DNA of 48,535 nucleotides from a virus, in the IMG/VR virus record IMGVR_UViG_3300019861_000001, positions 1-48,535 of that record, one strand, 5' to 3'. A program made the translations under genes and the position numbers. Shown in pieces: positions 4,321 through 48,535 of the stretch (position 1 is the stretch's first letter; every line of letters begins with the position of its first letter). The notes beneath the pieces are model-generated. The model was not told the origin of the DNA. It worked only from the letters and a program-made list of their open reading frames with translations, and ran no database searches.

Positions 4321-4343
4321 CTATGGTAAAAATTTTACCATAG
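4321..4343. repeat. 23-bp palindrome family copy CTATGGTAAAAATTTTACCATAG
   Basis: Perfect 11-bp arms. Lies 2 nt after the stop at 4318 and 33 nt before ATG 4377. Confidence 0.9.
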
Positions 4344-4700: not shown

Positions 4701-4855
4701 AAATACATCTAATTTGCTTATGCGGCTCTCAAATAAGTTTAAGTGGTGAGGAATACAGTATTAGGTCTTTAGCTACCGACTGGAGACAGCTCCATGATAA
4801 GTGTGTTATTAACACCTTACCTATACAACTTCTTCCAGAGGAGGATAAAGAATGA
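4697..4855 (+). CDS. Small Cys-containing protein, not in ORF track
   Basis: 52 codons, with ATGA overlap at both ends (4697-4700 and 4852-4855), which suggests translational coupling. Confidence 0.5.
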   Translation: MKIHLICLCGSQISLSGEEYSIRSLATDWRQLHDKCVINTLPIQLLPEEDKE

Positions 4856-5340
4856 ACAAGCCACAGTACTATCTCTCAATCGCTGAAGTAGTAGCTAAAC
4901 GCTCTAAGTGTCTATCACGTCAGATAGGTGCGGTCATTGTCAAGGATGATGCTATAATCTCCACAGGGTTTAATGGACCTCCTAGAGGAGTTCCTCACTG
5001 TGGGCTTGATAGGAGAAAAGTAGATCCTATGACAAAGGATCTTAATATTAGGTTAAATGAATGTCCTCGTAAGGTACTTGGATTTGGTAGTGGAGAAGGA
5101 TTGGAGTACTGTCCAGCTACTCACGCCGAAGCTAATGCTATAGTTCAAGCCGCTAAATCAGGTGTCAGCACTGACAGAGCTACTATGTATCTAACCTGTG
5201 GAGTACCATGCAAAAGTTGTTTAGGACTGATTATTAATTCAGGCATAGACACTGTCTACTGTACTAGTAAAGGTCTATATGATGATATTTCTAAATATAT
5301 AGCTGAGTATAGTAGAATAGTGTTTATGTCGTATGATTAA
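4852..5340 (+). CDS. dCMP (deoxycytidylate) deaminase
   Basis: Zinc motifs HAEANAI and PCKSC in a 162-aa protein. SD GAGGAGG. Confidence 0.85.
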   Translation: MNKPQYYLSIAEVVAKRSKCLSRQIGAVIVKDDAIISTGFNGPPRGVPHCGLDRRKVDPMTKDLNIRLNECPRKVLGFGSGEGLEYCPATHAEANAIVQAAKSGVSTDRATMYLTCGVPCKSCLGLIINSGIDTVYCTSKGLYDDISKYIAEYSRIVFMSYD

Positions 5341-5349
5341 GGAGGATTA

Positions 5350-7932
5350 ATGAAACCTCGTGCTTCTCGTGTCCCACCTAAGGGTGATAGGTCCACCTGT
5401 ATAATGGCTCTCGTTGGGGAACAGCCTGGTCGGGCTGAAGTTCGAAGACGTGAGCCATTCTGTGGACCTGCTGGTGATGAACTTGACAAGGATCTCGCAT
5501 CTGCAGGAATTCCTCGTTCTCATTGTTATATTACTAATACGTTTAAGGACTTGGATTTTTCTCTGGACTATTATGTCAAGTTCTCTAAGGGTAGTATCCT
5601 CTACTCAGCTGATGGGCTGGAGTATCTTAATGAGTTGAGAGATGAACTTATAAACTGTAAAGCTAATGTGATTGTAGCTGTTGGTGGAGTAGCTCTACAC
5701 GCCCTTACTAACCGTACAGGTATAATGAAGTGGAGGGGATCGGTTATAGAATCTACACTCATACCAGGACGAAAAGTGATTCCTATAATCCACCCCTCCA
5801 CAGTTATACCTCCTAAGAATCAGTTCCTCAACAAGCGACTAATAGTTTTTGATCTAATAAAAGCTCTTAAACATAGTGAGTTTTCTGAACTAGGACTGAC
5901 TCCAAGAAGGGTAGTAACTGAACCGTTCTATACTGGCTGCATAGAGTTTCTATCTGATTATATAACTAAGGGTCTTAATGGTGCTATAATAGACTTTGAT
6001 ATTGAGGTATACAAGGAAGAGATTTCCTGTATTAGTTTCTCAGCAAATCCTCTACTCTCAATCTCTATCCCATTCATAACTTCTCATGGAGACTACTTCA
6101 CTCCAGATCAGGAAGCTAAAGTATGGAGGAAGATTGCTGAGTTATTAGAAAATTCTAACATAGTTAAGAGAGGTCAAAACCTAACCTTCGACTGTTCTAT
6201 CCTCCTCTCCAAAATGGGAATAAAGGTTAGGAATATAGTGGATACTATGGTAGCTCAGAAAGTTATAATGCCTGATTATCCAGTTCGTCTAGACTTTATT
6301 ACATCTATCTTCACTGATATCCCCTACTATAAGGATGATGGGAAGAAGTGGTTTAAGATAGGTGGCGCGTGGCAGACGTTTTGGCACTACAATGGACTGG
6401 ATGCTATAGCAACTGGAGCATCCTATCCAGGTCAAATTGAGGAAGCTAATCGACAGAATAATCTACAGACTATTGAACGTCAGACTAAAATTATAGAACC
6501 ACTTGTCTATATGTCTCAGAGAGGGGTGAAGGTAGATATAAAAGGTCTTGAGGAACATAGAGATAAAATGACTGAGAGATTAGGAGTAGTAGCTGAGGAA
6601 CTGAGTTCTATAGTGGGAAGACCGGTCTTTGTAGATAAAGAACATTTAGCACAGTCTACTAAGCCAGACAACTTTCTACTACTATCTTCTCCTCAACAGC
6701 TATCACAGTATTTCTATGGAGACCTAGGACATAAGGCGTATCTTAAGAGAGGTAGAATTACTACAGATGAAACTGCTCTGGTAAGGTTAGCTAGAAAGGG
6801 AGTTAAGGAAGCTGTTCTTATCAAAGAGGTAAGAAGCCTAAGCAAGTTAATATCTACATATGCTAATATAGATAAGATTAGTGATGATGGTCGTCTTCAT
6901 TGTTCCTATAATCCTGTAGGCACTAAGACAGGTCGTCTCTCATCTAGTGAAGATATATTCGGTAAAGGAATGAATATGCAGAACTGGCCTCATAACCTTC
7001 TAAAGTTTCTAACTCCTGATGAAGGTTATGTGGTCTATACTATTGACCTCTCCCAAGCCGAGAATCGTATAGTCGCCTATGTCGGTAAGATACATAGAAT
7101 GATTAATGCTTTCGAAAACGAGGAAGATGTTCATAGACTTACAGCCGCACTAATCTTTGGAAAACCTCCTGAGGAAATTTCTGATAAAGACGGTTCATCT
7201 CCTATTGGTGGAGGTAGACACTCTGAAAGGTTTTGGGGAAAGAAATCTAATCACAGTTTCAACTACGATCTTGGATATAAAAACTTCTCCCTTGTAGTAG
7301 AAATTCCTGAGGGTGAGGCTAAATGGTTAGTAGAAAAATATCACTCGGCGTATCCTGAGGTAAGAGGAGTTTACCACCAGAACATCCGCCTACAGATTGC
7401 TAAGGATAAAACTATTACTAACCTAATGGGACGTAGACGAGTATTTACTGATAATTGGGGAGATGATCTATTCAAAAAAGCCTACGCTCAGATCCCTCAG
7501 TCAACAGTAGCTGATATAATAAACGAGAGGGGATTAATCCATATCTACTATAACCAAGATAGATTCAGTGAAGTAGAACTTCTAATGCAGGTTCATGATA
7601 GCATAGTATTTCAAATCCCCCTATCCATAGGATGGATACGACACTCGGAGATTCTTCTCGACATTAAGAAAGCTCTGGAAATACCACTAGTTACCAACGA
7701 TAAGGAGTTTATAATCCCTGCAGATATATCTATGGGACTAACCCTTTATAAGGAAGAGGGAGTAGACTTTAAACACGACAAAACTCCAGTTAATGTCTCT
7801 GAGTTTGCAGCAAGATTAGAAGAGGGATATAACAAATTACTGGAAAAGAAACCCACTGATACTTTGGAGGAGATCTATGACGTTGAAGAGACATCTACCG
7901 GACTGGTTGGAGAATTACCTGAAGTATACTGA
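5350..7932 (+). CDS. Family A DNA polymerase with 3'-5' exonuclease and an N-terminal UDG-superfamily (family 4-like) domain
   Basis: UDG motifs GEQPG..E..FCGPAGDEL and IHPS. Exo motifs IDFDIEV, NLTFD, YNGLDA. Pol motifs A (IDLSQAENRI), B (RFWGKKSNHSFNY) and C (VHDS). Confidence 0.85.
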   Translation: MKPRASRVPPKGDRSTCIMALVGEQPGRAEVRRREPFCGPAGDELDKDLASAGIPRSHCYITNTFKDLDFSLDYYVKFSKGSILYSADGLEYLNELRDELINCKANVIVAVGGVALHALTNRTGIMKWRGSVIESTLIPGRKVIPIIHPSTVIPPKNQFLNKRLIVFDLIKALKHSEFSELGLTPRRVVTEPFYTGCIEFLSDYITKGLNGAIIDFDIEVYKEEISCISFSANPLLSISIPFITSHGDYFTPDQEAKVWRKIAELLENSNIVKRGQNLTFDCSILLSKMGIKVRNIVDTMVAQKVIMPDYPVRLDFITSIFTDIPYYKDDGKKWFKIGGAWQTFWHYNGLDAIATGASYPGQIEEANRQNNLQTIERQTKIIEPLVYMSQRGVKVDIKGLEEHRDKMTERLGVVAEELSSIVGRPVFVDKEHLAQSTKPDNFLLLSSPQQLSQYFYGDLGHKAYLKRGRITTDETALVRLARKGVKEAVLIKEVRSLSKLISTYANIDKISDDGRLHCSYNPVGTKTGRLSSSEDIFGKGMNMQNWPHNLLKFLTPDEGYVVYTIDLSQAENRIVAYVGKIHRMINAFENEEDVHRLTAALIFGKPPEEISDKDGSSPIGGGRHSERFWGKKSNHSFNYDLGYKNFSLVVEIPEGEAKWLVEKYHSAYPEVRGVYHQNIRLQIAKDKTITNLMGRRRVFTDNWGDDLFKKAYAQIPQSTVADIINERGLIHIYYNQDRFSEVELLMQVHDSIVFQIPLSIGWIRHSEILLDIKKALEIPLVTNDKEFIIPADISMGLTLYKEEGVDFKHDKTPVNVSEFAARLEEGYNKLLEKKPTDTLEEIYDVEETSTGLVGELPEVY

Positions 7933-9079
7933 TAATAGTGAGCCTCCATTTCTATTCAGAACTTGGACTGCAATTAGTGTAATAGCCGGAGCTCTTAAAC
8001 GTAAGTGCAAACTCCCTTGGGGTATGCTTACATTCTATCCTAATATGTATATTATCTTAGTTGCTCCTCCTGGTAAGGCTAGGAAAGGAACGGCTATGGG
8101 GCCTGGTCTTGAGTTCTTGAATGAGTTAGGTATTAGATTAGCGGCTGAAGCTACAACACGTGAAGCACTTATTAAATGGTTAGGAGGAAGTAATGACACT
8201 ATTGTACACCCAGATGGAAAGACAGAATTCCATGCTTCACTCACTATTTATAGTGAGGAACTTACTGTATTTTTAGGATACCAAAATCGTCAACTTATTA
8301 ACGATCTTACTGATTGGTACGATTGTCGTGGTAGATGGACATACCGTACTAAGAATATGGGTACTGATGATATTATTGGGGTATGGGTTAATCTACTTGG
8401 TGCTACGACCCCAGATATGATACAGATGGCTATGCCCATCGAAACTGTAGGAGGAGGTCTAGCTAGTCGAATGATCTTTGTATTTGAGAGGAAGAAGGAA
8501 AAGACAGTTCCAGTAACTTTCCAGACTAAAGAAGAGTTAGAACTAAGGGAACTATTATTAAAGGATCTAGAACAGATACACATTATGCAAGGGGAGTTTA
8601 AGATAACCAATGATTTTCTAAATAGATGGATAGACTGGTACACCAGCCAAGGTGATAACCCTCCATTTGAGGACGATAAGTTTGCTGGGTATATAGAACG
8701 TAGACCAGCCCATATTCTAAAACTTAGTATGATACTCAATGCTTCAAGAACTAACTCTATGCTTCTTGATGTACAAGACTTTGAGCGGGCATTATCTATA
8801 CTTGGAGATACAGAGGTCAAAATGCCTCTAACATTTGGAGGAGTTGGAAAGTCTGTAATGTCAGATATAACATATAGGTTTATGGTTGAGATAGCTCTAC
8901 AAGGTGAGTGTACTATGTCCCACTTAATAGGCAGATTCTACAAAGATGTTAGTAAGTTCGAGATGCAGAAAATCCTTGAGTCGTTAGAATTAATGAAGTT
9001 TATATTCTACGTCTTCAAGGATAATCAGCAAAAAATAGTGTGGAATAAAGAGTGTAAGGAATCAGAGAAGTTTATGTAA
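7877..9079 (+). CDS. P-loop NTPase, candidate replicative helicase (DUF3987-like)
   Basis: 400-aa ORF with SD GGAGG. Overlaps the polymerase end by 56 nt. Walker A-like VAPPGKARKGT. Function rests on position next to the polymerase and a remembered family resemblance. Confidence 0.45.
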   Translation: MTLKRHLPDWLENYLKYTDNSEPPFLFRTWTAISVIAGALKRKCKLPWGMLTFYPNMYIILVAPPGKARKGTAMGPGLEFLNELGIRLAAEATTREALIKWLGGSNDTIVHPDGKTEFHASLTIYSEELTVFLGYQNRQLINDLTDWYDCRGRWTYRTKNMGTDDIIGVWVNLLGATTPDMIQMAMPIETVGGGLASRMIFVFERKKEKTVPVTFQTKEELELRELLLKDLEQIHIMQGEFKITNDFLNRWIDWYTSQGDNPPFEDDKFAGYIERRPAHILKLSMILNASRTNSMLLDVQDFERALSILGDTEVKMPLTFGGVGKSVMSDITYRFMVEIALQGECTMSHLIGRFYKDVSKFEMQKILESLELMKFIFYVFKDNQQKIVWNKECKESEKFM

Positions 9080-30564: not shown

Positions 30565-32145
30565 TTAGATTATCCTCCAATTCTCATAGGGTTTTTCGAA
30601 ATCCAGTTCTTCATATTCTTTTTCAGGGTCTTCCCCCATATCAGGAGGGTCGAAGTAGTAAGCCAACTCATCCATTATCTTGTTAATATAAGCAGCTGCA
30701 TCCATCACGTCCCACAACTTGGAACGAGGAAAGGAACGAAGTTGAGTCTCAAGAGGCCCACAGTTGTTCTTATTATGATACATATAGCCGAGTTTATATA
30801 GAGGAGCAAGATTAGCTATTCTTCCTTCTTTCTTCCCAATAGCCTGAAGTTCAATATATGTAGGGTGAACGTTACGAACTCTCATTTCGTTTTCAATAGG
30901 TTGAGAGATGAACTGGTGAAGAGAAGTTACTTCAACTCCCAATATCATACTTTTGTATCGTAATAGTTGCCCAAACATCATGTTGTATAGGGCATCAGGT
31001 CTAACCCGCCTAGATTCTATTGCCCGAACGAAGATTTTGTGAGATTCTCTATCAACTGCTATTGTCAAAACTGCACTCTCAGCAGAGTGAAGTTGGACAG
31101 TTTTAGCTGGATCACAAATAGTAACATGGAGTAGGCGAGAGGTAGGGATTTTTTCGTCTACAATAACTCCAGTCTCAGTTACTGACTTAACAACTAGTTC
31201 GTCTCCATAATCTTCAAAATAGTGAAAATACTCCTCCTTAAAAACCGCATCCTCAATGGATATAGGAAGATTCATACGCTCCATATAGAAGAGATCCATT
31301 AGACCTTTCCTACGATGTTCTTCTACTTCTTCCTTTATTTGTGTAGTAGTCATATAGTTTACATCATAAGATTCATAGTTCTCATTGCAGATAGAAAGAC
31401 GAATAGATGACCACTCAGGAGAATCAAGAAGAAGTTGGAGTAATGAGTCCTCATGTTTAATAGTATCAATATAGATAATAGTAGGAGGTTTCCCATACAT
31501 ATCTTCAGTTTTCATTACGTCAGAGAAAAACCACTCCTTTTGTTTCTGACGTAGATCCTCATTTCGTAGATCTTCTTTATTTTCTAGATCATCAATGATG
31601 ATTAGATCTGGACGATAGTTTGCCCAGTTCAATCCACGAATCTGCTGACCCATACCACGAGGGAGAACAAAAGTAGTACCAAAGGCTACCCACGCAAGTT
31701 TACTAAATGTGTCGTCTACTTCACCCACATCACTGATCTTAATACTGCCAAATAGAGACCTTACGGTTTTATTAGTTAATAGTGTACGTTTCATATTCTC
31801 AGTTTGCATTTCAGCTAGAGTAGCACTGTTTGAGAGATAGACTATAAAATGATAGTCTCTAAATAGTATTCCTTTATTAGCTATAGTACGTGCAATAGAA
31901 GTCTTTCCTAATCCACGTGGAGCAGCTATAGCTTTTTTGCTGTTGGAATTAGATATGGTCTCAAATATCTTATCATGAAGCATAGAGAAAGGAGCTGAAA
32001 AGATCTCAGGAAAAATAGCTTTACACATGAACTTAGTATCTATATAACAATTATGTAAGATACTTTTAGTTCTTTGAGTGAGATCACCTTCAACCTGTGG
32101 TAAAATTTTTACCATAGGTTCAGTCGTTTGGTACGTGTTTTCCAT
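30565..32145 (-). CDS. terL: Terminase large subunit
   Basis: Walker A AAPRGLGKTS and Walker B LIIIDDLE, with a C-terminal nuclease-sized domain. 526 aa. Confidence 0.85.
   Translation of the reverse strand: MENTYQTTEPMVKILPQVEGDLTQRTKSILHNCYIDTKFMCKAIFPEIFSAPFSMLHDKIFETISNSNSKKAIAAPRGLGKTSIARTIANKGILFRDYHFIVYLSNSATLAEMQTENMKRTLLTNKTVRSLFGSIKISDVGEVDDTFSKLAWVAFGTTFVLPRGMGQQIRGLNWANYRPDLIIIDDLENKEDLRNEDLRQKQKEWFFSDVMKTEDMYGKPPTIIYIDTIKHEDSLLQLLLDSPEWSSIRLSICNENYESYDVNYMTTTQIKEEVEEHRRKGLMDLFYMERMNLPISIEDAVFKEEYFHYFEDYGDELVVKSVTETGVIVDEKIPTSRLLHVTICDPAKTVQLHSAESAVLTIAVDRESHKIFVRAIESRRVRPDALYNMMFGQLLRYKSMILGVEVTSLHQFISQPIENEMRVRNVHPTYIELQAIGKKEGRIANLAPLYKLGYMYHNKNNCGPLETQLRSFPRSKLWDVMDAAAYINKIMDELAYYFDPPDMGEDPEKEYEELDFEKPYENWRII
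32095..32117. repeat. 23-bp palindrome family copy CTGTGGTAAAATTTTTACCATAG inside the TerL 5' end
   Basis: Encodes PMVKILPQ of TerL on the minus strand. Lies 3 nt past the stop of the upstream gene (32120). Confidence 0.85.
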
Positions 32146-38453: not shown

Positions 38454-38984
38454 TCATATGTCAATAACTTGACCACTCTCCTTAGCCCGTTTCTTAATAT
38501 CCTCGATATCTTGAGCTGTGAAATGTCCATGTAGATGTAGGTTGGCTCCAGGTTTTTGTGCTGGATAACCAGCTCTATCAAGCCAGCGTTCTGCAGTAGC
38601 TACTGTAAGGGAAGGAGAAACTAGGGATCCTACTGTATCAGGTTTACGATCTATAACGTCCTCCAGTACCTCCAAAACCTTAGGAAGTTTAGCTTTTATT
38701 CTAGCCATCACGTCTATAACTTCGCAATCTCTAGCTCCCTGCATAAGCTCCATTTTATCCTTGACAACTTGGGAGTTGCGGGTGTAAGAAACAGTAGCTT
38801 CACTGATCCCTAAACGTTCTGCTATTTCAGTATTTTTGAGGCCCAGAAGGACTAGGCGAGAAATCTCGTGGTGAATGTCCCACATCTTGGACACCTCGAA
38901 GGTTCTGCGGTCAGAAGGAGGAACCGTGCGTAGATCTGGGCCTCTATTCCCATCAAAGTACTTATACTTACCATTACTTCCCAT
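38454..38984 (-). CDS. HTH (LuxR/sigma-region-4-like) DNA-binding protein: late regulator or small terminase candidate
   Basis: ISRLVLLGLKNTEIAERLGISEATVSY. C-terminal ERWLDRAGY resembles small-terminase tails. Second gene of the late arm. Confidence 0.45.
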   Translation of the reverse strand: MGSNGKYKYFDGNRGPDLRTVPPSDRRTFEVSKMWDIHHEISRLVLLGLKNTEIAERLGISEATVSYTRNSQVVKDKMELMQGARDCEVIDVMARIKAKLPKVLEVLEDVIDRKPDTVGSLVSPSLTVATAERWLDRAGYPAQKPGANLHLHGHFTAQDIEDIKKRAKESGQVIDI

Positions 38985-39130
38985 TATCTCTTCCTACCTC
39001 CTCTATCTGGCTTAAACCCATGCTTGACGGCTTCAGCTACCCTCTCAAAATTCTCCCGCTTTTTAGATGATTTAAACTTCCTTACCGAGCCATCACTCAT
39101 TTTTAACCTATTACCACTGAGTTTAGTCAT
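38984..39130 (-). CDS. Small, very basic protein (48 aa), first gene of the late arm, not in ORF track
   Basis: SD AAGGAGGG 4 nt upstream of ATG 39130. Its stop overlaps the next ATG (TAATG). 15 of 48 residues are K or R. Confidence 0.55.
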   Translation of the reverse strand: MTKLSGNRLKMSDGSVRKFKSSKKRENFERVAEAVKHGFKPDRGGRKR

Positions 39131-39153
39131 AACACCCTCCTTATTATAAACCC

Positions 39154-39182
39154 ATTTTAACACACAATTACTTAGCTGTCAA
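39154..39182 (-). promoter_or_regulatory. Sigma70-type promoter of the minus (late) arm
   Basis: Minus strand reads TTGACA-17 nt-TAAAAT. A TTTCCACAAA box (39191-39200) lies 8 nt upstream of the -35. Confidence 0.6.
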
Positions 39183-39239
39183 GTCAAATTTTTGTGGAAA
39201 TAACTCCAGTAAAGTACCCACAGTACCCATTAGTACTTC

Positions 39240-39262
39240 CTATGGTAAATTTTTTACCATAG
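39240..39262. repeat. 23-bp palindrome family copy CTATGGTAAATTTTTTACCATAG in the divergent control region
   Basis: Perfect 10-bp arms, 57 bp upstream of the minus-arm -35. Followed by hairpin GAGGAC-ctc-GTCCTC. Confidence 0.9.
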
Positions 39263-39299
39263 AGGACCTCGTCCTCCTCGTGGTGGACGTTAGTCCATT

Positions 39300-39313
39300 C
39301 CACAAAATTGTGG
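39300..39313. repeat. Inverted repeat CCACAA-AA-TTGTGG (dyad version of the TTCCACAAA box)
   Basis: 6-bp arms, read directly from the sequence. Confidence 0.7.
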
Positions 39314-39455: not shown

Positions 39456-39484
39456 TTGACATTCACAAAAATCACTGGTAAAAT
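39456..39484 (+). promoter_or_regulatory. Sigma70-type promoter P1 of the plus (early) arm
   Basis: TTGACA-17 nt-TAAAAT. About 118-nt leader before ATG 39609. A degenerate palindrome copy overlaps the -10. Confidence 0.6.
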
Positions 39485-39608
39485 GTGAACCATGAAATCG
39501 AAATGGTTTCTATGTCATACATACGTAGTATGATATTGCTCTTTGACAATTGAATAGTAAACCGTCCAAGTTCTCCATGATACCACAAACATAGAAAGCG
39601 AGGTTGTC

Positions 39609-39968
39609 ATGGAAACAATCAAAATACAGACCAATTCACTAAAGGGCGGAGATCTACCAGAGGACTTCACCATAGTCGATCCGATTATAGTCCTCGAGAA
39701 CGATACTCCAGAACAGTTCCCAAAGGGAGATATGTTGACACTGTTTATCGAAGGTGCGAGAGTACGAGCGCAAAGAGTACTACGGGCAAAAGGCGTTGCA
39801 TATCTAAAAGGGAAGAAAGAATTCACACTCAAGATGTCGGAACTGTTCGAGCGTAGGTCTACCGTGAAAGTACTAACACCTGACGAGTACGTGGACATGA
39901 TATTGAAGAGTGGCGATAAGAAAGCTATCGCTGAACTCGAAGAAAAATTGGCAAAAGCAAAAAAGTAA
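39609..39968 (+). CDS. Early hypothetical protein
   Basis: 119-aa ORF, first on the plus arm. SD GAGG. Confidence 0.7.
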   Translation: METIKIQTNSLKGGDLPEDFTIVDPIIVLENDTPEQFPKGDMLTLFIEGARVRAQRVLRAKGVAYLKGKKEFTLKMSELFERRSTVKVLTPDEYVDMILKSGDKKAIAELEEKLAKAKK

Positions 39969-40030
39969 TACTAATCGGAGAACTGGACGGTAAACTATTC
40001 AAAACAACACTATAACAAACGAGGTATAAA

Positions 40031-40159
40031 ATGTATACAGTGGAAACAGGTATAGGATCAATCAATCCTAAGAGCATAGACGATTTAATAGAGTGGATAA
40101 GAATTACAGATACATTCTTCGATAGTTTTGAGATGTCTATTACCAAAACTAAAGAATAA
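40031..40159 (+). CDS. Small early ORF (42 aa), not in ORF track
   Basis: SD GAGGT 5 nt upstream of the ATG. Confidence 0.4.
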   Translation: MYTVETGIGSINPKSIDDLIEWIRITDTFFDSFEMSITKTKE

Positions 40160-40186
40160 ACTCTCCAAATCTTTCATTCCAACTCC

Positions 40187-40215
40187 TTGACATTGTTTGG
40201 GAGTTGTGGTATAAT
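40187..40215 (+). promoter_or_regulatory. Sigma70-type early promoter P2 with extended -10
   Basis: TTGACA-17 nt-TATAAT. Shares AGTTGTGGTATAAT with P3 and P4. Confidence 0.7.
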
Positions 40216-40245
40216 AACAGTAAACACTAATAAAAGGATAAAACT

Positions 40246-40476
40246 ATGAAACGCTATTCCTATTCAACTACGTCTTATGACTACGCACAAACTGGGGCTA
40301 TATTCTTAATGGGATATCTTATTAGTTTTAGTTATCGTAGCGAGAATCGAGGTGGAACGAGATGGTATGTCCTAACTGTTATCTTCGAGAACGAAGAGGA
40401 TGCCAATAAACTATGGAGACTACTTAATGACACTATAGGGAATATAGGTGCGTTTAGTTTTGGGCATAGGAGATAA
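40246..40476 (+). CDS. Early hypothetical protein
   Basis: 76-aa ORF downstream of P2. Confidence 0.6.
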   Translation: MKRYSYSTTSYDYAQTGAIFLMGYLISFSYRSENRGGTRWYVLTVIFENEEDANKLWRLLNDTIGNIGAFSFGHRR

Positions 40477-40565
40477 CAATGAAGAGGGCCGAGGTGGATA
40501 TGGAGTTGTCAAGGTAGTACTACGACCATAGATGATGTAAATGTGGAATCCCTAACCCTAGGGCT

Positions 40566-40781
40566 TTAGTCCTTAGTTGCTAGTTGGGGGGGTGGTATGG
40601 GAAATACATTTTACCATAGATGAACATATAAGAATGGGTGTAACTACTCTTTTCTTCTAAAAAAAAAAATAAATAAAAAAAAATAAGAAGAAAGAAATAG
40701 AATAACATTATCTACGTAAATATTCATCTATGGTAAATTTCATTAATTGAAGCGAGGTGGGGACTAGCAACTAAGGACTAA
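40566..40781. repeat. 216-bp nested imperfect palindrome around an A/T-only tract (origin-like or structured-RNA element)
   Basis: Three arm pairs: 40566-40584/40763-40781 (19 bp perfect), 40610-40624/40723-40737 (15 bp perfect) and 40652-40658/40686-40692 (7 bp). They flank a 27-nt A/T-only run at 40659-40685. Confidence 0.85.
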
Positions 40782-40822
40782 CCACTAAACACAGGAGATT
40801 AGTATTTCCACAAAATATTACA

Positions 40823-40851
40823 TTTACAAATGTAATTAGTTGTGGTATAAT
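40823..40851 (+). promoter_or_regulatory. Sigma70-type early promoter P3
   Basis: TTTACA-17 nt-TATAAT with AGTTGTGGTATAAT. A TTTCCACAAA box (40805-40814) lies 8 nt upstream of the -35. Confidence 0.65.
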
Positions 40852-40877
40852 TAATAATATAGAGAGTGAGGTACTAG

Positions 40878-41072
40878 ATGGTAGAACTAACAACAGAGCA
40901 GAGAGAGGCAGTAAACAAAGGTATAAATGCTATCGCAGATATTTATAGGCAGTTAATGTGGGAGTGGGATTGGAAGTATGTGAAGGAGTATAACGGGGCT
41001 ACAGAGAATGGAGATGGGATACTCAGGGTTACAAAGTATAATGGAGTAGCGCACGAAGGTAGGTTTATTTAA
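40878..41072 (+). CDS. Early hypothetical protein
   Basis: 64-aa ORF with SD GTGAGGT. Confidence 0.6.
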   Translation: MVELTTEQREAVNKGINAIADIYRQLMWEWDWKYVKEYNGATENGDGILRVTKYNGVAHEGRFI

Positions 41073-41095
41073 TAATAGAGAAAGTGAGGTACTAG

Positions 41096-41215
41096 ATGGA
41101 AATATTAGATTATAACTGGGCTATATATGATTACTGTCTTTACTGGCAGATGTGGCATAGTTATCCTCATGACTTGGACGGTAGAGGATATACAAAGTAT
41201 AATGAGAAAATATAG
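41096..41215 (+). CDS. Small early ORF (39 aa, Trp/Tyr-rich), not in ORF track
   Basis: Same initiation region (AGTGAGGTACTAGATGG) as ORF 40878. Confidence 0.4.
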   Translation: MEILDYNWAIYDYCLYWQMWHSYPHDLDGRGYTKYNEKI

Positions 41216-42238: not shown

Positions 42239-42382
42239 ATGACTATGGAGTTTATAGCTATTTGGTTCTTCGGGACAATAGGAGTTATGATGGGAGTTCT
42301 GGCAGGGAATCTATGGCTGGATAGAATCAGCCGTAGGAAGAGGACAAGAAAAATAATTCTTAGAAGGTTGAAGGAGGTATAG
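42239..42382 (+). CDS. Small membrane protein (47 aa), not in ORF track
   Basis: SD GGAAGGAGG. TM FIAIWFFGTIGVMMGVLAG followed by a basic tail. Confidence 0.5.
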   Translation: MTMEFIAIWFFGTIGVMMGVLAGNLWLDRISRRKRTRKIILRRLKEV

Positions 42383-42383
42383 C

Positions 42384-42728
42384 ATGTGGATAGAAGTCCA
42401 ACCTCCAGTCGAGATGGCTGGGCTATCTCCGGATGAGATAGTAGAAATGGCAATAGAAAAGCTCAAAGAGCTTCATAAGAAGATAAGGGTTTTGGAGGAG
42501 CAACTGGCTCCTCTCAATAGGGAGTTTCTATTCTGGTGGAAACTCAAGAAACAGGAGTTGTTAAAGAAAACTCCCATAACTAAGGTTCCTGAGGGAGTAT
42601 CAGCGAGGGATAGGGAGGTATCGTGGAGGTTAAAACAGGTAGATATTGAGAGCTTCGTCAGCCAGATGAGCGATGAAAGTAGAATGGCGTTACTAACAAA
42701 ACTTCAAGAAAGGAGCAAGGAACTATAA
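42384..42728 (+). CDS. Early hypothetical protein (coiled coil)
   Basis: 114-aa ORF with SD GAAGGAGG. Confidence 0.65.
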   Translation: MWIEVQPPVEMAGLSPDEIVEMAIEKLKELHKKIRVLEEQLAPLNREFLFWWKLKKQELLKKTPITKVPEGVSARDREVSWRLKQVDIESFVSQMSDESRMALLTKLQERSKEL

Positions 42729-42997
42729 TGGGAATGATAACAGCAGTAGTAACTGTACTCCCTCAGTGTAGTTTCTGCAATGAAGTAGCTCACTATGATT
42801 TTAGAACTTATAATGGTAGTTGGGCTTATGGATGTGAGAAACATTGGAGAGGGTATAGAGCAACTGAAGGATTGGGACTGGGAGAAGGGCAACTTCTCAT
42901 TAGTGCCAAGGAGATTAGGAAAATGCACGAATATATAGTAAGAAAGAAGGTGGAATATGAAGAGGCTTTTATTTCTACTTGGACTGAAGAAAGTTGA
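42728..42997 (+). CDS. Early Cys-rich hypothetical protein
   Basis: 89-aa ORF containing CSFC...GCEKH. Confidence 0.6.
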   Translation: MGMITAVVTVLPQCSFCNEVAHYDFRTYNGSWAYGCEKHWRGYRATEGLGLGEGQLLISAKEIRKMHEYIVRKKVEYEEAFISTWTEES

Positions 42998-43069: not shown

Positions 43070-43276
43070 ATGGAATGGGAGAATCATAGAGAACTAACTC
43101 CTCAGGAGAAGATAGATATTCTTATGGGAGTTGGAAAGTATAAGCAAGCGGCTACTATAGCCGAGGAACTTGGGAGGAGGATAGAGATTAAGGATAGTAG
43201 AGGAACCATGTATAGAATAGCTCCTGATGGGTCAGTTAGACGGTTAGTCAGTAAAAGAAGAAGAAGAGGACGTTAA
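43070..43276 (+). CDS. Early hypothetical protein with basic tail
   Basis: 68-aa ORF with SD AGGAGG. C-terminus KRRRRGR. Confidence 0.6.
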   Translation: MEWENHRELTPQEKIDILMGVGKYKQAATIAEELGRRIEIKDSRGTMYRIAPDGSVRRLVSKRRRRGR

Positions 43277-43277
43277 T

Positions 43278-43300
43278 CTTTGGTAAAATTTTTACCATAG
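43278..43300. repeat. 23-bp palindrome family copy CTTTGGTAAAATTTTTACCATAG
   Basis: Starts 2 nt after the stop at 43276. Its right arm runs into the SD (ATAGGAG) of ORF 43310. Confidence 0.9.
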
Positions 43301-43309
43301 GAGAATAGT

Positions 43310-43501
43310 ATGATAAGGAAAATATATGTATTTGGTAAGATTGTGGAGGTAGAGTTTAGCTATGAAGAACCAGAGAGAGGTTCTAACTATGTAGGTGGTT
43401 ATGAGGTTTATGAGATAGACGACATTCCGTCTCACTTCTTTACCAATGATTATATATCTGAAGTAATTAGACGTTTAGAAGAACTGAGGAGTGCAAGGTG
43501 A
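43310..43501 (+). CDS. Early hypothetical protein
   Basis: 63-aa ORF. Confidence 0.6.
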   Translation: MIRKIYVFGKIVEVEFSYEEPERGSNYVGGYEVYEIDDIPSHFFTNDYISEVIRRLEELRSAR

Positions 43502-43523
43502 TATATTTCCACAAATTATTACA

Positions 43524-43552
43524 TTGACCAACAAGCCAAGTTATGTTAATAT
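43524..43552 (+). promoter_or_regulatory. Sigma70-type promoter P5
   Basis: TTGACC-17 nt-TAATAT. A TTTCCACAAA box (43506-43515) lies 8 nt upstream of the -35. Confidence 0.55.
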
Positions 43553-48059: not shown

Positions 48060-48404
48060 ATGATACATATTAGAACCAACAGATCAGAAACATCAACCGA
48101 AATATTAAGAGTAGAGGAAGTAGCTTTCATCAGAGGAAAGATTGAGGATAGAAAGTACAAGACTCAGGTCTTTCTAAAGTGTGGGACTATTGTTCATATG
48201 AATCTAGACAAGAAGGAATTTCAATCTTTGAAGGACTCTATTTATCCACCTACTCAAGTGGAAGTCTGCAAAAACTATAATGATAAGCCGGCTCAAACAG
48301 GACTTGGACCTTTATTCATACAGACAGATGAATCTCCAGATGAATCGCCAAAAGATATAGTAGACACAATGTTGGATGATCTCTCAGATACTGAGAGTAA
48401 ATAA
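48060..48404 (+). CDS. Hypothetical protein with acidic C-terminus
   Basis: 114-aa ORF with SD GGAGG. Confidence 0.65.
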   Translation: MIHIRTNRSETSTEILRVEEVAFIRGKIEDRKYKTQVFLKCGTIVHMNLDKKEFQSLKDSIYPPTQVEVCKNYNDKPAQTGLGPLFIQTDESPDESPKDIVDTMLDDLSDTESK

Positions 48405-48535
48405 TAACTTAATTTATAGGAGGTATTAGTTATGGGTTTTTTAGACATCAACCTTGGAGATGCAAAAGAACCAAAAGCAGCTGCTGAAGGTGAGTATCTT
48501 ATTAGATGGCTGGATACTAATGAGGGGATAGATAA
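48395..48535. repeat. Terminal direct repeat, right copy (identical to 1-141)
   Basis: See 1-141. Confidence 0.95.
48432..48535 (+). CDS. Duplicate 5' fragment of ORF 38-427 created by the terminal overlap
   Basis: Identical sequence, truncated by the window end. Not a separate gene. Confidence 0.9.
   Translation, partial: MGFLDINLGDAKEPKAAAEGEYLIRWLDTNEGID

Follow-up and report, generated by a model that had tools for sequence, protein, structure and literature searches.

The DNA analysed here, referred to throughout as the window, is the whole 48,535-nt stretch of IMG/VR virus record IMGVR_UViG_3300019861_000001, a complete, circularly assembled phage genome of ~48.4 kb. The element under study is a 216-bp nested inverted repeat with a poly-A core (positions 40566-40781). 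We tentatively regard it as a cis-acting DNA site and a candidate lytic replication origin of the phage family to which the window belongs.

The inverted repeat and its surroundings

Early and replication genes occupy the + strand from ~39.5 kb, through the ends of the window, to 9.08 kb. This block encodes a fusion of uracil-DNA glycosylase (UDG) with PolA, a DUF3987 protein, an ATP-dependent ligase, a PD-(D/E)XK nuclease, a Sak4-like ATPase, a ParB-methylase and a dCMP-deaminase-like protein. Late genes, including that for the large terminase (30565-32145), fill the - strand between 39.16 and 9.08 kb. Strong sigma-70 promoters with an extended -10 element were found at 39456, 40187, 40823 and 41953 on the + strand and at 39182 on the - strand.

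The repeat fills a 400-bp non-coding gap between an open reading frame (ORF) at 40246-40476 and the promoter at 40823. Upstream of this ORF is a consensus sigma-70 promoter (40187-40215, + strand; TTGACA-17-TATAAT, TG-extended), and because no terminator intervenes, transcripts from it should run into the repeat. The promoter on the other side (40823-40851, + strand; TTTACA-17-TGGTATAAT) begins 42 nt past the right arm and drives the ORF that starts at 40878. An earlier sequence-only reading, made without database searches, had placed the repeat between an early gene and a promoter, and both flanking features are as it described them.

That reading had also listed three nested pairs of arms, whose coordinates hold base for base. 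The outer arms, TTAGTCCTTAGTTGCTAGT at 40566-40584 and its complement at 40763-40781, are paired at 19 of 19 positions. The middle arms, TTTACCATAGATGAA at 40610-40624 and its counterpart at 40723-40737, are paired at 15 of 15 and stretch to 28 nt at 82% complementarity. These two pairs share an axis at 40673.5 and are spaced by 25-nt gaps on the left and on the right. The inner arms, TTCTTCT at 40652-40658 and AGAAGAA at 40686-40692 (7/7), stretch to 15 nt at 80% complementarity and form the innermost stem, with a pyrimidine (CT) tract at 40644-40658 as its left half and a purine (GA) tract at 40686-40700 as its right half. Between them lies an A/T-only core (40659-40685; A11-T-A3-T-A9-TA on the + strand), which is a candidate DNA unwinding element. 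The outer arm has a single-arm inverted-repeat score of 19, as compared with best scores of 9.5-12 across 21 background 4-kb segments, and the window holds no second copy of the 19-mer, even at up to three mismatches. The repeat is not due to chance. It also contains no credible ORF, as had been proposed; the sole ORF, 42 aa of low complexity, is an artefact that arises from the poly-A run.

The outer arms are built from tandem heptamers. On the left (40564-40584, + strand) there are three, CTTTAGT-CCTTAGT-TGCTAGT, with the core YTAGT at 7-bp steps, and positions 40566-40584 of this array make up the perfect 19-nt arm. On the right (40763-40790, + strand) there are four, ACTAGCA-ACTAAGG-ACTAACC-ACTAAAC, reversed relative to the left array, the fourth of which falls outside the complementary arm. 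Exact TAGT-N3-TAGT-N3-TAGT arrays are confined in this genome to the two arms of the repeat. Just inside the left arm is a G7 run (40586-40592), the sole G run of seven in the genome, and just inside the right arm is a G4 run (40759-40762) on the same strand, so that G stands opposite G and the palindrome is interrupted there. The middle arms (40603-40630 and 40717-40744, + strand) hold TTTACCATAG at 40610-40619 and CTATGGTAAA at 40728-40737, respectively, which are everted half-sites of a 23-bp palindrome family, as the sequence-only reading had recognized. TTTACCATAG is present in 13 copies where 0.25 are expected, and copies of it make up eight palindromes of 23 bp (CTnTGGTAAAwwwTTTACCATAG) at 4321, 12709, 22954, 32095, 39240, 41892, 43278 and 46814, mostly at gene boundaries and in both transcription units.

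By nearest-neighbour free energy, the least stable 50-bp duplex of the genome (40655-40704) and its least stable 100-bp duplex (40648-40747) both lie at the centre of the repeat. The same place has the longest A/T-only run of the genome (29 nt, with 17 nt for the next longest) and both of its A runs of at least 8 nt. The coincidence of the centre with the stability minimum of the genome supports the reading of the element as an origin.

An exact 141-bp direct terminal repeat is present at 1-141 and 48395-48535. It is most likely the overlap of a circular assembly and does not mark physical genome ends; 141 bp is a common maximum k-mer length of assemblers. No tRNA or tmRNA genes were found in the window.

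The element in related phages

No DNA-level match to the window was found among deposited phages in searches for near and distant similarity. A search with the exact arm matched only the same phage, at 98.9% identity, and so yielded no covariation. The nearest named relative is Desulfofustis phage LS06-2018-MD01 (hereafter MD01), the PolA of which is 45% identical; it was predicted to be strictly lytic by its authors (PMC10370329).

Related phages were obtained by searching IMG/VR with the 23-bp palindrome and were mapped by tblastn, and further loci were gathered by anchoring on a conserved gene near the start of the late operon. In the window this anchor gene (38454-38984, - strand) follows a 59-aa ORF (38984-39163) near the start of the leftward late operon and encodes a small-terminase-like protein with an N-terminal LuxR-type helix-turn-helix (HTH). 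In Pfam it matches only the LuxR/sigma-70-region-4 HTH, but its family profile matches small terminases of solved structure (PDB 7joq, E = 8.6e-07). In the window, the distance between it and the large terminase gene is taken up by approximately 6 kb of extra genes, among them those for an endolysin-like peptidase and a beta-helix protein. A quasi-palindrome was present in 14 of the 17 anchored loci (designated by L numbers below), and these, together with those of the window and MD01, make up the 16 elements analysed.

Relatives whose proteins are 35-55% identical likewise have a large, imperfect inverted repeat in the corresponding position, with arms of unrelated sequence, and MD01 carries an equivalent element though it is without the 23-bp palindromes. 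The 16 quasi-palindromes measure 206-381 bp and lie 0.9-2.3 kb from the anchor gene, on the side of the early genes. Their arms are 26-83 nt long, with an inter-arm distance of 110-205 nt in the anchored loci and 271 nt in MD01, and the arm scores are 19-32.5 against a background of 9.5-13.

The elements share a common plan. The outer arms are made of short cores repeated at 7-9-bp steps; polar cores at this spacing were scored in 11 of the 15 relatives. The core itself differs by lineage, being TTAGT/ACTAA in the window clade, TGTA(A/C)/TACA in a distant clade, CGTAAT in MD01 and GAGGATA in L041 and L044. A G-run followed by a CTCCC-like segment is often present, and the centre, AT-rich in all elements, consists of a CT-rich tract, an A-run and a GA-rich tract in that order. 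A TTGACA-type promoter lies 24-76 nt beyond the right arm in 13 of the 16. Conservation of this plan while the sequence diverges argues for an origin.

The repeat cores are strictly polar: those on the left point one way and those on the right the other, with hardly any exceptions. In the window, L041, L043 and L045, moreover, the right side bears surplus copies that have no pairing partner. Since base pairing needs neither polarity nor unpaired extras and protein binding does, the arms are arrays, putatively protein-binding, as well as stems, and their nature as polar arrays with unpaired surplus on the right lends further support to the origin reading. The sequence-only reading had assigned the role of protein-site dyads to the half-sites in the middle arms. 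This assignment is only partly right: the half-sites are present in three of the 16 lineages, and the conserved dyads are the repeats of the outer arms, which that reading had not recognized as arrays.

Other features are fixed to one strand. The central core has the form T-A(8-17)-T, always on the sense strand of the early genes. A central A run of at least 6 nt lies no more than 27 nt from the geometric centre in 15 of the 16 elements, and a T run of at least 6 nt occurs in none of the 16. Similarly, TAAAAAAA is found in 15 elements and its complement in 0 of 16. G runs of at least 4 nt outnumber C runs by 20 to 5, and in six elements mirror-placed G-runs on the same strand of both arms interrupt the palindrome.

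The MD01 element (L040; OP947158.1) sits between a strong intrinsic terminator (12-bp stem, T8), which follows an unannotated + strand ORF and lies 150 nt before the element, and the next promoter. No terminator was found ahead of the element in the other 15. Because of this terminator, the MD01 element is retained even where upstream transcription should stop, and its retention there, together with its direct repeats, favours an origin. At 43140-43225 it comprises three 17-bp direct repeats (TAGTGGGATAATATYCC), a G9 run, an inverted copy (GGGATATTAT) and then an A17 run; the repeats lie inside 55-nt arms and form a more classical iteron set than that of the window. GenBank annotates three small - strand ORFs in the region of 42356-42817 of OP947158.1, and more across the repeat at 43076-43537. 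A 153-aa + strand ORF at 42356-42817, followed by the terminator at 42863-42901, fits better, and the annotation there is probably wrong.

Two independent metagenomic contigs end at the element, L046 at its right edge and L038 at 15 nt beyond its left edge. Such ends may reflect a failure of assembly across a poly-A-containing region that can form a hairpin, or they may hint at a physical discontinuity.

A second conserved inverted repeat (39550-39568 and 39984-40002; 19 nt, 89%, with 415 nt between the arms) exactly encloses the window's first ORF in the rightward direction (39609-39968). The same bracket geometry, with different arm sequences, is seen in nearly all relatives (e.g. L051, L046 and L048), and the early transcript could form a long-range RNA stem there. 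The promoter at 40187 and the ORF at 40246-40476 are enclosed in a similar way (40137-40153 and 40453-40469).

A candidate origin and its candidate helicase

The DUF3987 protein of the early block (7877-9079, + strand) is an MCM-like AAA+ helicase of superfamily 6 (SF6) by its predicted fold, and is a candidate origin-binding, self-loading helicase. Its AlphaFold model (predicted local distance difference test, or pLDDT, 85.6) ends in a winged helix of the order H-b-H-H-b-b, at approximately residues 327-390. The top 50 matches in a fold search of the PDB were all MCM, with E down to 8e-10; a sequence search against the PDB returned chance matches only. The protein collection contains 2055 relatives, many of them on 45-52-kb contigs. 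DUF3987 proteins have been described as SF6, MCM-like replicative helicases of phages that have a C-terminal winged HTH and are usually partnered with a primase (Kazlauskas et al., PMC4889955). PHROGs labels the product of 7877-9079 'DNA primase', yet its predicted fold is that of an MCM-like AAA+ helicase that carries a winged helix and lacks a primase domain. Among the proteins scanned, none was recognized as a primase, and the small ORFs that flank the repeat match no Pfam or PHROG family and thus give no clue to an origin-binding protein. The family-A DNA polymerase (5350-7932, + strand) bears an N-terminal family-4/UdgX-like UDG domain, and its gene directly follows that of the dCMP-deaminase-like protein (4852-5340).

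The winged helix evolves much faster than the ATPase core. Identity to distant relatives is 19-33% in the former and 47-59% in the latter, and to close relatives ~59% and 77%, respectively. The presence of an SF6/MCM-like helicase, the winged helix of which diverges quickly, as do the arms of the element, supports the origin reading. So does the combination of a strong adjoining promoter in 13 of the 16 elements with the lack of a primase among the scanned proteins.

The two strands of the element also fold alike. Both strands of the window element fold far more stably than dinucleotide shuffles of themselves, with z = -4.9 and -8.9 as RNA and z = -5.3 and -7.6 as DNA, and as DNA the two are near equal in energy (-34.2 and -34.9 kcal/mol). 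Raw folding energies favour the sense strand in five of six elements. After the dinucleotide-shuffle control both strands reach z = -6 to -10, and the preferred strand varies among relatives. Since both strands fold equally once composition is controlled, the conserved feature appears to be symmetry at the level of DNA, which again speaks for an origin.

We lean, tentatively, towards an origin of the two-array, central-unwinding type that is served by the MCM-like helicase and probably assisted by the adjacent promoter. The sequence-only reading had offered a replication origin or a large structured RNA. The origin half of that proposal gains from the stability minimum, the conservation across the family, the polar arrays and the MCM-like helicase, and the RNA half is neither strengthened nor refuted. 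In the mechanism we propose, the opposed arrays of short repeats (YTAGT at 7-bp steps in the window, other cores in relatives) would serve as a symmetric pair of landing sites that flank the A-run core. The DUF3987 helicase would bind them through its fast-evolving C-terminal winged helix and load as two opposed hexamers, as proposed for the Rep protein of staphylococcal pathogenicity islands (SaPIs). Opening of the core may be aided by negative supercoiling behind the strong promoter 42 nt to the right, and also by the quasi-palindrome, which would let each separated strand fold back and keep the bubble open. Because no primase gene is recognizable, we propose that the first primer may be a transcript made by the host RNA polymerase from the promoter at 40187. 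The purine-rich sense strand, with its G-runs, A-run and GA tract, would favour a stable RNA-DNA hybrid, and replication would then start at the element.

The SaPI precedent is a further argument for this reading. SaPI origins contain 6-12 penta- or hexanucleotide iterons, half of them on each side of an AT-rich centre, with at least two per side and in opposite orientations (PMC9371898). The iterons are bound by the C-terminal winged helix of the self-loading Rep/PriRep, and two hexamers are thought to load, one per side; the origin lies directly downstream of the helicase (rep) gene (PMC9371898). The element resembles the origins of SaPIs and related phage-inducible chromosomal islands in its two opposed sets of short repeats (here three heptamers on the left and four on the right) around an AT-rich centre, in its total size of a few hundred bp, in a repeat core of 5-7 nt, and in a centre predicted to melt, here by nearest-neighbour computation. 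The type of enzyme is likewise shared, namely a hexameric AAA+ helicase with a fast-diverging C-terminal winged helix, which is a predicted fold here and confers specificity in SaPIs. In contrast, the helicase of the window belongs to DUF3987/SF6 and has no sequence match to solved structures, and the element is quasi-palindromic down to its centre, with an A-run and G-runs fixed on one strand.

Other origins share parts of this architecture. The oriS and oriL of herpes simplex virus (HSV) consist of a palindrome on an A+T-rich spacer with inverted sites for the initiator helicase on its arms, and intrastrand hairpins have been proposed to stabilise the activated origin. The palindrome with an A+T-rich centre and the inverted arm sites, which are candidate sites here, are common to both. 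The HSV palindromes, however, are 45-144 bp long and have a single binding box per arm where the element has arrays, their initiator UL9 is a superfamily 2 helicase, and they lie between divergent genes, a setting that is found here only in MD01. The primary origin of T7, ori(uvsY) and ori(34) of T4 and the ColE1 origin are transcription-activated or transcript-primed. They are like the element in having a strong promoter beside an A+T-rich unwinding element and a purine- or G-rich non-template strand, and like its phage family in a family A polymerase with no dedicated primase recognizable; they are without a large inverted repeat or arrays. A promoter reads into the element without a terminator in the window, and the arrangement is compatible with this in 14 relatives but not in MD01. 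As the MD01 terminator separates the upstream genes from the element, transcription into it cannot be a universal requirement. Finally, ori and crr of P4, both of which are needed, contain 8-bp repeats in both orientations that are bound by the C-terminal domain of alpha, a fusion of primase and superfamily 3 helicase. Multiple short repeats in both orientations and a phage AAA+ helicase, for which recognition is proposed here, are common to the two systems, whereas P4 has no palindrome or poly-A centre.

Several observations weigh against an origin of this type. The element is ~17 kb from the helicase gene on the circular map, unlike SaPI origins, which directly follow rep; the DUF3987 gene ends at 9079, where it abuts a convergent late gene. 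Complementarity spans the whole element and extends beyond the repeat cores, which a simple two-array origin does not require. Such a symmetric model also leaves the strand-fixed A-run and G-runs unexplained; they point to a strand-specific process, and a function at the level of a transcript would explain them equally well. In 15 of the 16 elements, upstream transcription could cross the element unhindered by a terminator. Irrespective of the arm core, the recognition helix of the DUF3987 protein varies across all three close relatives, in a comparison of three pairs. Nucleotide skew gives no independent support. The sequence-only reading had named a skew switch at about 40.7 kb as a check, and the cumulative minima fall instead at 39721 (GC), 39411 (purine) and 39299 (AT), ~1 kb left of the repeat, and skew is already positive in the segment 39500-40560, to the left of the repeat, where the genes are on the + strand. 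Because the switch at 39.3-39.7 kb tracks the change of gene orientation, the test does not discriminate, and skew neither supports nor refutes an origin at 40.7 kb.

Alternative readings and meaning for the family

It is possible, although we think it unlikely, that the element works as RNA, with early read-through giving a hairpin of 200-380 nt with a poly-A apical loop that is cut or bound. The transcript would come from the promoter at 40187 in the window and from a rightward promoter beside the terminase gene in relatives, and it might be cut, for example, by RNase III, as in the early mRNAs of T7. Such a hairpin may fix the 3' end of the upstream message and its stability, separate this message from the operon that follows, or tie up a host factor with affinity for A-rich RNA. 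The sense strand folds strongly (z = -4.9 to -9.9), an upstream promoter reaches the element without a terminator in all elements except that of MD01, and some features are fixed on one strand, namely the A-run on the sense strand, the G-run bias and the lean of arm mismatches on that strand towards G-T (101, against 57 A-C). The bracket around the first ORF of the early transcript likewise suggests that the family uses long stems in early RNA. The G-T excess, however, is expected from the G>C skew of the genome on the sense strand, and neither strand is consistently preferred once composition is controlled. The surplus cores fall beyond the paired arms and keep a strict polarity, neither of which pairing needs. 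MD01 retains its element behind a strong terminator, and a separate strong promoter directly after the element means that downstream expression needs no RNA processing. Rfam 15 gave no match at the gathering score over the whole window and none at E <= 1 over 40100-41100.

We give a lower probability to the possibility that the folded form is itself the working state, as a hairpin of 200-380 nt that serves as a substrate for loading or priming, or that it belongs to a new class of large structured non-coding RNA in hundreds of uncultured phages. In a family with no recognised primase, a transcript of the host polymerase or the displaced sense strand may fold, and its poly-A loop and conserved G-against-G bubbles may serve the MCM-like helicase and the family-A polymerase.

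Equally improbable, in our estimate, is a role as the control or insulator region of the early promoter at 40823, by which the early operon would be timed. An A-tract bend and sites with the sequences TTCCACAAA and TTTACCATAG would here form a looped repressor or activator complex, or a cruciform sensitive to supercoiling. The operator-like motif TTCCACAAA is present at 39191-39199 (- strand), 39298-39306, 40806-40814 and 43507-43515. Its copy at 40806-40814 precedes the -35 of the 40823 promoter by 8 nt, and it is kept beside the same promoter in close relatives; it recurs among the divergent promoters and, in inverted form, immediately to the left of the repeat at 40542-40548. It resembles the TCCACA core of the DnaA box, and its palindromic form, CCACAAAATTGTGG at 39300-39313, suggests an operator. 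The promoter 24-76 nt after the element in most members of the family fits this role, as do the half-sites of a genome-wide regulatory palindrome in the middle arms of three lineages. The 23-bp palindrome is kept in relatives at ~40% protein identity, and this conservation of its sequence implies a specific binding protein; the small-terminase-like protein, with its LuxR-type HTH, is a candidate. Against promoter control, the half-sites are missing in most relatives and in MD01, where the 23-bp palindrome itself is absent, and the arm cores change among close relatives while the early promoters and TTCCACAAA stay constant. The centre of the A-run is 150-200 bp upstream of the -35, too distant for an UP element, and such a model does not need the deepest stability minimum of the genome.

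Still less probable is a packaging signal (pac or cos) or a physical genome end, at which small-terminase molecules would bind the inverted arrays around an intrinsic bend and the terminase would cut nearby. The hexamers of P1 pac and the sites of lambda cosB are terminase-bound repeats, and as in the element, short repeated sites there flank a centre that is bent or cleaved, in the vicinity of the terminase genes. The anchor gene lies 1.6 kb from the element and is small-terminase-like, and its homologue in MD01 is directly upstream of the large terminase gene. Moreover, the element lies between the starts of the early and late blocks, where genome ends tend to fall in phages with such a convergent layout, and the contigs L046 and L038 end at its outer edges on opposite sides. 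Ends on both sides of an inverted repeat, however, resemble assembly breaks. Here, the terminase HTH shows no covariation with the repeats of the arms: its recognition helix SEATVSYTRNSQVV is identical in the window, L043 and L041 despite differing cores (TTAGT vs CTATCCT), and L044 and L045 share a helix and have different cores. This lack of covariation weakens the packaging reading. In addition, divergent promoters and one to three oppositely oriented ORFs stand between the element and the terminase gene, the poly-A centre is unlike known cohesive ends, and the 23-bp palindrome at 39240, far closer to the terminase gene, would be a more natural terminase site.

A selfish element resembling a miniature inverted-repeat transposable element, or a palindrome that arose mechanically and does nothing for the phage, would account for terminal inverted repeats, subterminal short repeats and an A-rich interior; it was rejected as highly improbable on copy number, flanks and synteny, since the element is single-copy, its flanks (GGGCT left, CCACT right) show no target-site duplication, no transposase is present, and the syntenic position is kept at 35-45% protein identity while both arms change together.

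Origins are unknown for almost all uncultured phages. The family described here is large, with the 2055 relatives of its helicase and more than 500 IMG/VR contigs, and it combines a polymerase of family A with an MCM-like helicase of a bacterial virus, for which no loading site is known to have been described. If the folded form proved to be the working state, it would represent a palindrome-assisted, strand-specific initiation that has not been described for tailed phages. As a candidate origin, the element is a concrete candidate for where and how an SF6 helicase loads in bacteria, and it could be a landmark for orienting and annotating these genomes.

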